Below are positions 312 to 2,288 of a stretch of 8,285 nucleotides of DNA, piece by piece. Below the pieces are notes generated by a model. That model saw only the letters and a program-made list of their open reading frames with translations, did no database searches and was not told the origin of the DNA. The stretch is from IMG/VR virus record IMGVR_UViG_2698536484_000017; one strand, written 5' to 3'. The first letter of the stretch is position 1. Each line of letters opens with the position of its first letter. A program made the translations under genes and the position numbers. The stretch is from a virus (taxonomy: Duplodnaviria; Heunggongvirae; Uroviricota; Caudoviricetes).

Positions 312-2288
312 TCAGCTGATACTGATGCCTGCGGTGGCTTTCTTCATCACCACAACCAGCAAATCGCTGATACTTGCTGTGGGATACCAGTCATTTACCA
401 GCCATGCTGACACCGAAAACTCCAGCGTCATGTGACCGTGACCGGCAGGCATATCAATAACGCCACTGTAAATCAGCGTATTATCCAGCGCGGTACGGTT
501 ATAAATTTCAGCACCGTTTTTCCGCACTATCAGACGGCATGAGGAGTAAATATCAGTATGCTCTCTCTCATGTTTAGCGCCGCTGAATGCCACCGCAGGA
601 ATAACAATCTGCCGGTCAAACGGCTGATCGTCATAAACCCTGACGGTAATGGTCCCTGATGGCCACCGTTCCGGTGCACGGGAGTCCCGGGGGAAAGCTT
701 TGCCCACTGTTTTAACGAGATCGCCTTCAATCTGGTTCGCGGACAGTTTTCCCAGAACCCGACAGTTCTCGTTAATCGTGACGTTGTTGAGCGTCCCGGA
801 GTTCGCATTCACGTTACCGCTGATATCGGCATTTTTCGCCGTCAGCCGCCCATCCGGTGTCAGGGAAAATGCCGGAGGATTACCGCCGCTGGTAATGGTG
901 GGAGCCGTCAGGCGCTTCAGGAACACGTCGTTCATGAATATCTGATTGCCCTGCGCCACAAACATCGGCGTTTCATTCCCGTTTGCCGGGTCAATAAATG
1001 CGATACGGTTAGCGGCAACCAGAAACTGACTCAGTTTGCCTTCCTCCGTGTCCTCCATGCTGAGGCCAATACCCGCGACATAATGTTTGCCGTCTTTGGT
1101 CTGCTCAATTTTGACAGCCCACATGGCATTCCACTTATCGTTGGCGTCCTTCCACTCTTTCGAAAACTCCTCCAGTCTGCTGGCGTTATCCTCCGTCAGC
1201 TCGACTTTTTCCAGCAGCTCCTTGCCGAGATGGGATTCGGTTATCTGGCCTTTGAAAAAATCCAGGTAACCTTCCGCATCATCGCTCGCCCGACCGACAG
1301 CCTCCACAAATGCCGATTTGCCAACAGTGTTCACACTACGGATATAAAAATAATAATCATGGCCCGGTTTGATATTGATACTGGCGGCTATCCAGTACAG
1401 CGCCGTGCCAAGATAGCGGGCTGTGGTTTCAACCTGCCTGATATCGGTAATCCGCTTTTCCGAGAACCAGAACTCAAACTGTACCGTCGGATCATAAACG
1501 GCAAGATGCGGCGTTGCGGTTATCTGAAAATAGCCCGGCGTCAGCTCAATCCGCGACGGTGCTGCCGGTGCGGCAATCCGGAACGATACCGATGCCGGAT
1601 CGCCCTGCTGCCCCCAGGCATTTGCCGCCCGGACTGTCAGCCTGTAGTTTCCCAGGGCCAGTTGCGTGAAGCGGTATGTGGTTTCCGTCGTCCGGGCCGT
1701 GCTGACCAGCCGCTCACTGCCGTCGTCTGCTGCCACAGTCAGGCGAAGCATAAAGCTCACACCCTTCACCACCTTCGGCGTGTCCCATCGCGCCAGCACC
1801 TGATATTCCCCGCTGTCTGCAGTGACTTCTGCGATCAGGTGCTGCACCGCTGGCGGCGTGACACCATTCACCGTGCCACTCTGTTCGCCGTCAAAGTGCG
1901 CCCCGTTATCCACGATGGCCTCTTTTTCCGGCACATGCTGCACGGCGGTGATGGCATACGTGCCGTCGTCGTTCTCACGGATACTCACGCAGCGGAACAG
2001 TCGCTGGCGCAGCGTCGGCAGCTTCAGCCCCCATACGCTGTATTCAGCAACACCGTCAGGAACACGGCTCACTTTTACCTTCACGCCGTCGGTGACGGAC
2101 TGAACCTCCACGCTGACCGGATTGCCACTTCCGTCAACCAGGCTTATCAGCGTGGTACCGGAGGATGGCAGCGTGATTTCACGGTCGAGCGTCAGCGTCC
2201 GGGTCTGGCTGTTCACCGCCAGCACACGACCACCGGTGCTGATACCGGCATAGTCATCATCACAGATTTCAATGACATCGCCCGGCAC
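312..2288 (-). CDS. J: Tail tip attachment / host specificity protein J, C-terminal fragment, separated from the N-terminal part by a frameshifting tandem duplication (likely pseudogene fragment)
   Basis: The 658-aa ORF aligns by eye with lambda J from about residue 480 to the end ([46 protein letters not shown]... FN3-like central region ...LGISIS). The J frame is actually open upstream to about 2318, reading [15 protein letters not shown], so J homology begins at the duplication junction near 2303. The start shown in the ORF track is an alternative start codon inside the protein, not a true initiation site. Confidence 0.8.

Follow-up and report, generated by a model that had tools for sequence, protein, structure and literature searches.

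Gene Organization of the Locus

The window (the whole 8285-nt stretch of DNA that was analyzed) corresponds to a lambdoid prophage's tail-tip module, which is encoded on the minus strand. Its genes follow the order H C-terminus (7593–8216), M, L, K, I, a small lipoprotein-like open reading frame (ORF), J, and the start of lom, and phage lambda shares the H-M-L-K-I-J-lom order with it. All of the tail genes adjoining J are intact. The tip of the tail-tip protein J is encoded on the minus strand at positions 312–1100, which hold the codons for its last 262 residues; the peptide quoted in the first-pass annotation of this DNA is the exact C-terminus of the minus-strand ORF at 312–2288. The lom start, at 2–244 on the minus strand, is cut by the end of the window and was recognized as an Ail/Lom outer-membrane protein by the Pfam model PF06316 (E = 4.9e-43). 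Between it and the J stop, at 274–293 on the minus strand, lies a GC-rich hairpin (GGGCGCC-AGAAAT-GGCGCCT) that begins 19 nt past the stop codon, is followed by a T-run, and looks like an intrinsic terminator. In phage 434, an annotated terminator occupies the equivalent position, and a terminator and lom likewise follow J. Two long open frames antisense to J were also noted on the plus strand, at 1083–2366 and 2327–4015 (427 and 562 codons); they are repeated because of the duplication described below and were regarded as by-products of coding on the other strand.

The ORF located between I and J (4871–5209, minus strand) encodes 112 amino acids with a lipoprotein-type signal (…IIALTG/C) and matches phrog_914, a family with no assigned function; searches of Pfam, NCBIfam, and the PDB returned no match for it. 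Lambda is without this ORF, and its I–J gap is just 60 bp. The exact 112-aa protein was found in 6742 blocks of a public collection, and among the ten loci listed it is encoded directly upstream of J. In one locus (L007), an IS66-family insertion separates I from the region of the 112-aa ORF and J, the ORF still following I. A role as a receptor-linked exclusion factor was considered and rejected, as the ORF is not tied to the type of tip: a second locus (L002, NZ_CP141863.1) has an ORF at the same position together with a 434-type tip. The 112-aa ORF is a candidate moron.

A Tandem Duplication within J

The first-pass annotation had doubted that J is intact, and the doubt was borne out. An intact J would occupy a single frame of ~1130–1160 codons; the window holds two ORFs instead, with products of 863 and 658 aa. 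The proximal ORF (2213–4804, minus strand) corresponds to lambda J residues 1–833, after which it runs out of frame for 30 residues to a stop codon. The distal ORF (312–2288, minus strand), which begins with a GTG start codon, corresponds to lambda J residues 474–1132 and is without the N-terminal hub domains; it matched the NCBIfam model lambda_TipJ at profile positions 474–1163 only, with a score of 1222 that is below the cut-off of 1950. The gene is split by a tandem duplication with a period of 1097 nt, of which the copy that is distal in the gene direction spans 1208–2304 and the proximal copy 2305–3401, with the junction at 2304/2305. The repeated unit corresponds to lambda J codons ~474–833, and as its length is of the form 3n+2, the reading frame shifts after residue 833. 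As the sequence is written, a functional J could not be made, the hub part being separated from the fiber and tip. Deletion of either copy from the sequence gives a 3396-nt open frame encoding a 1131-aa J, so a single homologous exchange between the copies would repair the gene and restore a full-length J carrying the receptor-binding domain (RBD) described below.

Between the copies there are 20 internal mismatches, which are clustered at 1221–1413 and 2001–2240, with none at 1414–2000. Such a pattern is unexpected for a fresh duplication and fits unequal exchange, or mis-assembly, between two different J alleles; the duplication may be a recombination product of this kind or an artifact of assembly. 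A megablast search of 5426 complete Escherichia coli genomes found no contiguous match to the junction, the junction 27-mer is absent from the GTDB species representatives, and the exact product of the 863-aa ORF has no record in the protein-position index. The explanation that competes best with a repairable gene is that the tip is a functionless relic of a J-defective prophage or, in a variant of this explanation, that the break was created when an assembly joined two paralogous J genes. The split by a 3n+2 duplication, the junction and product without counterparts in the collections searched, and the placement of the 20 mismatches near both copy ends, as expected for two joined J alleles, are all in keeping with it, as is a median of two places matching this tip in the E. 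coli genomes that have any match; the RBD, however, is undamaged and has 100% DNA identity to intact J genes of other strains, removal of one repeat brings back the full ORF, and the neighboring tail genes have all been kept intact. We therefore take this explanation seriously and give it somewhat less than even odds. With J disrupted, the domain may never be displayed.

Mosaic Structure and Fold of the J Tip

The first-pass annotation had described the last ~250 residues of J as homologous to lambda J and clearly divergent from it. The homology is firm: in a phmmer search against PDB chains, the product of 312–1100 matched full-length lambda J with an E-value of 1.9e-104, query residues 1–261 aligning with J residues 870–1131. 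The divergence is confined to a shorter stretch than had been proposed, the last ~160–180 residues (312 to ~850, minus strand). The first 102 residues of the product of 312–1100 have two substitutions relative to lambda, and upstream of lambda residue 874 the protein is 90–100% lambda-like. From lambda residue 874 onward, the identities in successive 40-residue bins are 100, 100, 72.5, 57.5, 40, 27.5, and 50%. As for whether the C-terminus might on alignment prove essentially identical to that of lambda J, it did not: 72 of the last 160 residues are identical (45.0%), and the tip is well removed from lambda's own LamB-binding cassette (J residues ~972–1132). At the DNA level, identity to lambda J in 30-nt bins is at least 90% down to position ~851, 80–87% at 850–791, and 47–73% over most of the stretch below 790. 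The segment at 851–1100 (minus strand; DNA identity 90–100%) encodes the near lambda-identical distal part of the central straight fiber, a beta-prism. Most of the lambda motif framework that had been listed for the tip is present, as WPSGT, DRQIV, and a GIS-containing terminus are common to both proteins; the supposed VDMPAG is the lambda form and reads IDMPAG in the window.

A sharp mosaic break falls at window positions ~790–850, or lambda J codons ~953–975, at the boundary between the beta-prism fiber and the RBD described for lambda gpJ (PMC11101478). J is a mosaic that is ~97% lambda-like to about residue 955–970 and then continues with a different RBD cassette, a widespread allele of the 1A2 type discussed below. 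The domain content agrees with the usual makeup of the protein, in that the central fiber domain PF09327 (ORF residues 372–499, window 792–1175) and FNIII/Ig domains precede the RBD. The RBD itself (315–707, minus strand, with the stop codon at 312–314) matched the Ig-like Pfam family PF12421 (Ig_GpJ_C) at the extreme C-terminus of J, over ORF residues 528–658 and the whole profile (1–135 of 135); the score was 129.1 bits, where 26.2 is the cut-off.

AlphaFold2 modeled the last 170 residues as an all-beta domain, and the mean pLDDT is 80.2. When the model was compared to the PDB with Foldseek, the best matches were the A8 gpJ tip in its closed (9wca) and open (9wcb) states, at 63% identity, followed by the lambda tip in its closed state (8xck) and open on LamB (8xcj), at 47% identity; the TM-scores for these four entries are 0.71–0.74 and the E-values 8.6e-19 to 6.8e-17. 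The divergent part is thus a bona fide member of the gpJ RBD family, with a modeled Ig-like fold that superposes on the solved gpJ tips. Entry 9wcb is titled [quoted passage not shown].

Relationship to the 1A2 Cassette and Receptor Assignment

It is long established that the C-terminus of J sets the choice of receptor and is exchanged among lambdoid phages (PMC11101478). In the work of Brodel et al., Nature 2024 (PMC11338833), natural gpJ C-termini were grafted onto lambda gpJ at residue 964, and two chimeras, A8 and 1A2, were tested. Variants recognizing a receptor other than LamB were sought with a recipient lacking lamB, and ompC was deleted and resupplied from a plasmid. The 1A2 chimera delivered DNA into the lamB-deleted host only when a suitable OmpC was present. 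The A8 chimera delivered with both MG1655 and EDL933 OmpC, whereas 1A2 delivered with EDL933 OmpC and not with that of K-12 MG1655. According to the source data of the same paper, delivery by 1A2 at the highest MOI exceeded 75% with 20 of 23 OmpC variants; 1A2 failed with G1, G2, and G40, the figures for G1 being the same as those in the OmpC-MG1655 panel. The 1A2 results were obtained with a chimeric J on lambda particles whose side fiber had also been engineered, and not with a natural phage.

Native DNA strings from the window had no match in the supplement of PMC11338833, and blastn found no match between the native DNA and the printed 1A2 DNA; the printed gene was taken to be recoded. Because the two DNA sequences differ, the comparison was made at the protein level. 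The printed sequence is a machine-read PDF with base drop-outs, and since scanning frameshifts fragmented the alignment in plain tblastn, a frameshift-tolerant protein-to-DNA aligner was written. With this aligner, the last 182 residues of the window's J were identical to the printed GpJ 1A2 at 165 of the 173 codons that could be read cleanly, nine codons being unreadable. Three of the eight mismatches look genuine (from window to 1A2, R to K in HEREH, D to N in VNDW, and S to T in GISIS), and the other five, such as a stop codon inside the domain, look like scanning damage. A natural E. coli allele (P0002) that is identical to the window at 157 of 160 residues carries exactly the K, N, and T of 1A2.

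Judged by its sequence, the window tip is a 1A2-type cassette, and this makes OmpC the most likely receptor. The first-pass annotation had proposed a receptor different from LamB; the 165 of 173 codons shared with the OmpC-dependent 1A2 support that proposal and sharpen it to a named porin. Taken as a whole, the reading in which the tip is a 1A2-type RBD, the porin is most likely OmpC, and J is nonfunctional as written but repairable by recombination has, in our estimate, a probability of about 85%. By analogy with 1A2, we infer that this exact allele uses OmpC, and its specificity probably takes in the OmpC of O157 strain EDL933 and many other natural variants, and not K-12 MG1655 OmpC. The J protein of the window has the look of a naturally occurring lambda-1A2 chimera, as its RBD cassette is the same and joins the lambda body at the same point, near residue 964; it differs from the engineered chimera in the R/K, D/N, and S/T substitutions, in its native DNA, and in the duplication that breaks the gene upstream. 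The literature searched gave no receptor data for natural phages with this tip. It likewise gave no gpJ receptor assignment for the ECOR prophages PhiR55_1 and PhiR47_1, whose collection comes from Brenes & Laub 2025 (cited in PMC13190303). A receptor-prediction preprint from 2026 left the lambda gpJ C-terminus out of account, treating it as lacking homology to the phages under comparison.

Among alleles at least 85% identical to that of the window, polymorphism is concentrated in three patches, residues 84–92 (KHEREHTDI), 129–132 (HGHM), and 141–146 (WLVNDW) in the numbering of the 170-residue model. We infer from this pattern that the variable patches may be contact loops that adjust the set of OmpC variants the tip can use. 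Of the three differences from 1A2, two (R/K, and D/N in WLVNDW) fall in the most variable patches, and with these three substitutions the range of OmpC variants could differ from that of 1A2, as conceivably could the receptor. A reading that joins a shift in OmpC-variant recognition, caused by the substitutions in the hypervariable patches, to a duplication that is real and serves as a reversible off-state appears improbable. A little less probable again is that the three substitutions direct the tip to OmpF, FhuA, or another protein, or to clearly different OmpC variants. The position of two of them in the most polymorphic patches of the allele family, and the precedent of phage 21 and lambda, in which single J mutations confer the additional use of OmpC or OmpF, give this idea its basis, but the substitutions are conservative, the tip is 98% identical to an allele with a demonstrated requirement for OmpC, and its exact DNA is present in many strains. 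That the tip still recognizes LamB, its divergence being neutral drift on a conserved LamB-binding scaffold, is very improbable, for although the fold and the motifs WPSGT, DRQIV, and DMPAG are shared and phage 21 uses LamB with a J that has 94% nucleotide identity to lambda's, identity across the RBD is only 45%, the abrupt DNA break is typical of cassette exchange, and 1A2, which is nearly the same tip, requires OmpC and functions in a host without lamB.

The preferred assignment, a 1A2-type tip that most likely binds OmpC, can also be set against the other named tips over the last 160 aa. A8, which is OmpC-dependent, is 61.2% identical to the window, with indels in two loops, and has the same domain and fold, being the best structural match; it differs from 1A2 in also using MG1655 OmpC. 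Lambda, which uses LamB, stands at the 45.0% given above, with the same architecture and an upstream fiber that is identical to about residue 955. Phage 434, the receptor of which is OmpC (PMC11101478), is 42.9% identical and carries a separate cassette of the same family, and the tip of the window is not of the 434 type. Phage 21 was dropped as a candidate OmpC reference, as its native receptor is LamB.

Distribution of the Tip

A megablast search with the tip DNA (window 312–794) gave matches in 3399 of the 5426 complete E. coli genomes. At least 99% identity was reached in 659 records, with perfect matches that include ATCC 25922, S88, and APEC O1. Lambda's own tip DNA was found in 98 of the same 5426 genomes, and the five matching records that were listed are laboratory or DE3-type strains. 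No J tip is commoner in E. coli than the type found in the window, and lambda carries a minority allele. Phage records with a tip at least 95% identical number 53, among them PhiR55_1 (99.4%) and, at 98–99%, 2G7b, O157 Stx2a phages, and PPompW prophages; for these natural alleles (PhiR55_1 under accession PV340571), the RBD protein is 98–99.4% identical to that of the window. All ten of the loci fetched through the neighboring lipoprotein gene carry this tip, at 94–99%. Many natural alleles with this tip belong to a J of 1159 residues; the J of the window would have 1131 once collapsed, and its middle part is lambda-like. Several database proteins with this tip (P0021, P0023, P0029, P0040, P0043, and P0093) have short out-of-frame stretches inside the domain, which suggests that E. 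coli assemblies often contain J pseudogenes with frameshifts, or else sequencing errors.

The first 467 residues of J are 98–100% identical across all of the loci examined. The closest overall relative of the window is locus L002, which is 99.1% identical over 95% of the window; its J (3314–6727) is identical to that of the window over those 467 residues and ends in a 434-type tip. This pair is a direct example of free cassette exchange on an otherwise conserved J backbone. Exchange of the J C-terminal cassette together with a switch of receptor is textbook lambdoid biology, and the allele in the window is not an unusual one: it is a well-known and very common alternative module, already known and with nothing new in kind.

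Proposed Mechanism and Implications

For lambda, it is known that the gpJ trimer binds a trimeric porin and thereby triggers opening of the tail (PMC11101478), and the steps proposed here for the tip of the window are modeled on the lambda structures in that work. By analogy with the solved lambda and A8 tips, three copies of the RBD would cap the central fiber, and four loops at their base would insert into the extracellular face of the trimeric porin. Docking would spread the RBD bases and draw their tops together, upon which the beta-prism would tighten and twist, the helical shaft would flip, and the FNIII strings would be released. The hub and tail tube would then open, allowing gpI, gpH, and the DNA to leave. 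The open-state A8-OmpC complex (9wcb) suggests that the lambda mechanism extends to OmpC-binding tips. As everything upstream of the tip is lambda-identical, the machinery should be unchanged, with only the docking surface differing.

If the duplication is real and serves as such an off-state, RecA-mediated collapse would regenerate an intact J with an OmpC tip in a minority of cells and, the copies differing at 20 positions, could give several recombinant J sequences. The 1A2-type cassette has already been functionally characterized and is in use in engineered delivery vectors, the related A8 tip has been solved on OmpC, and the 1A2 tip was aimed at O157 strains in a later preprint on the anti-STEC vector EB003 (bioRxiv 10.1101/2025.02.28.640725). 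In the annotation of a prophage such as this one, OmpC can be named as the likely receptor, in place of a LamB assumed from a "lambda-like" J. With the LamB tip as the exception among E. coli genomes and the tip type of the window as the norm, the difference is worth bearing in mind wherever lambda serves as the model for the host range of E. coli prophages.
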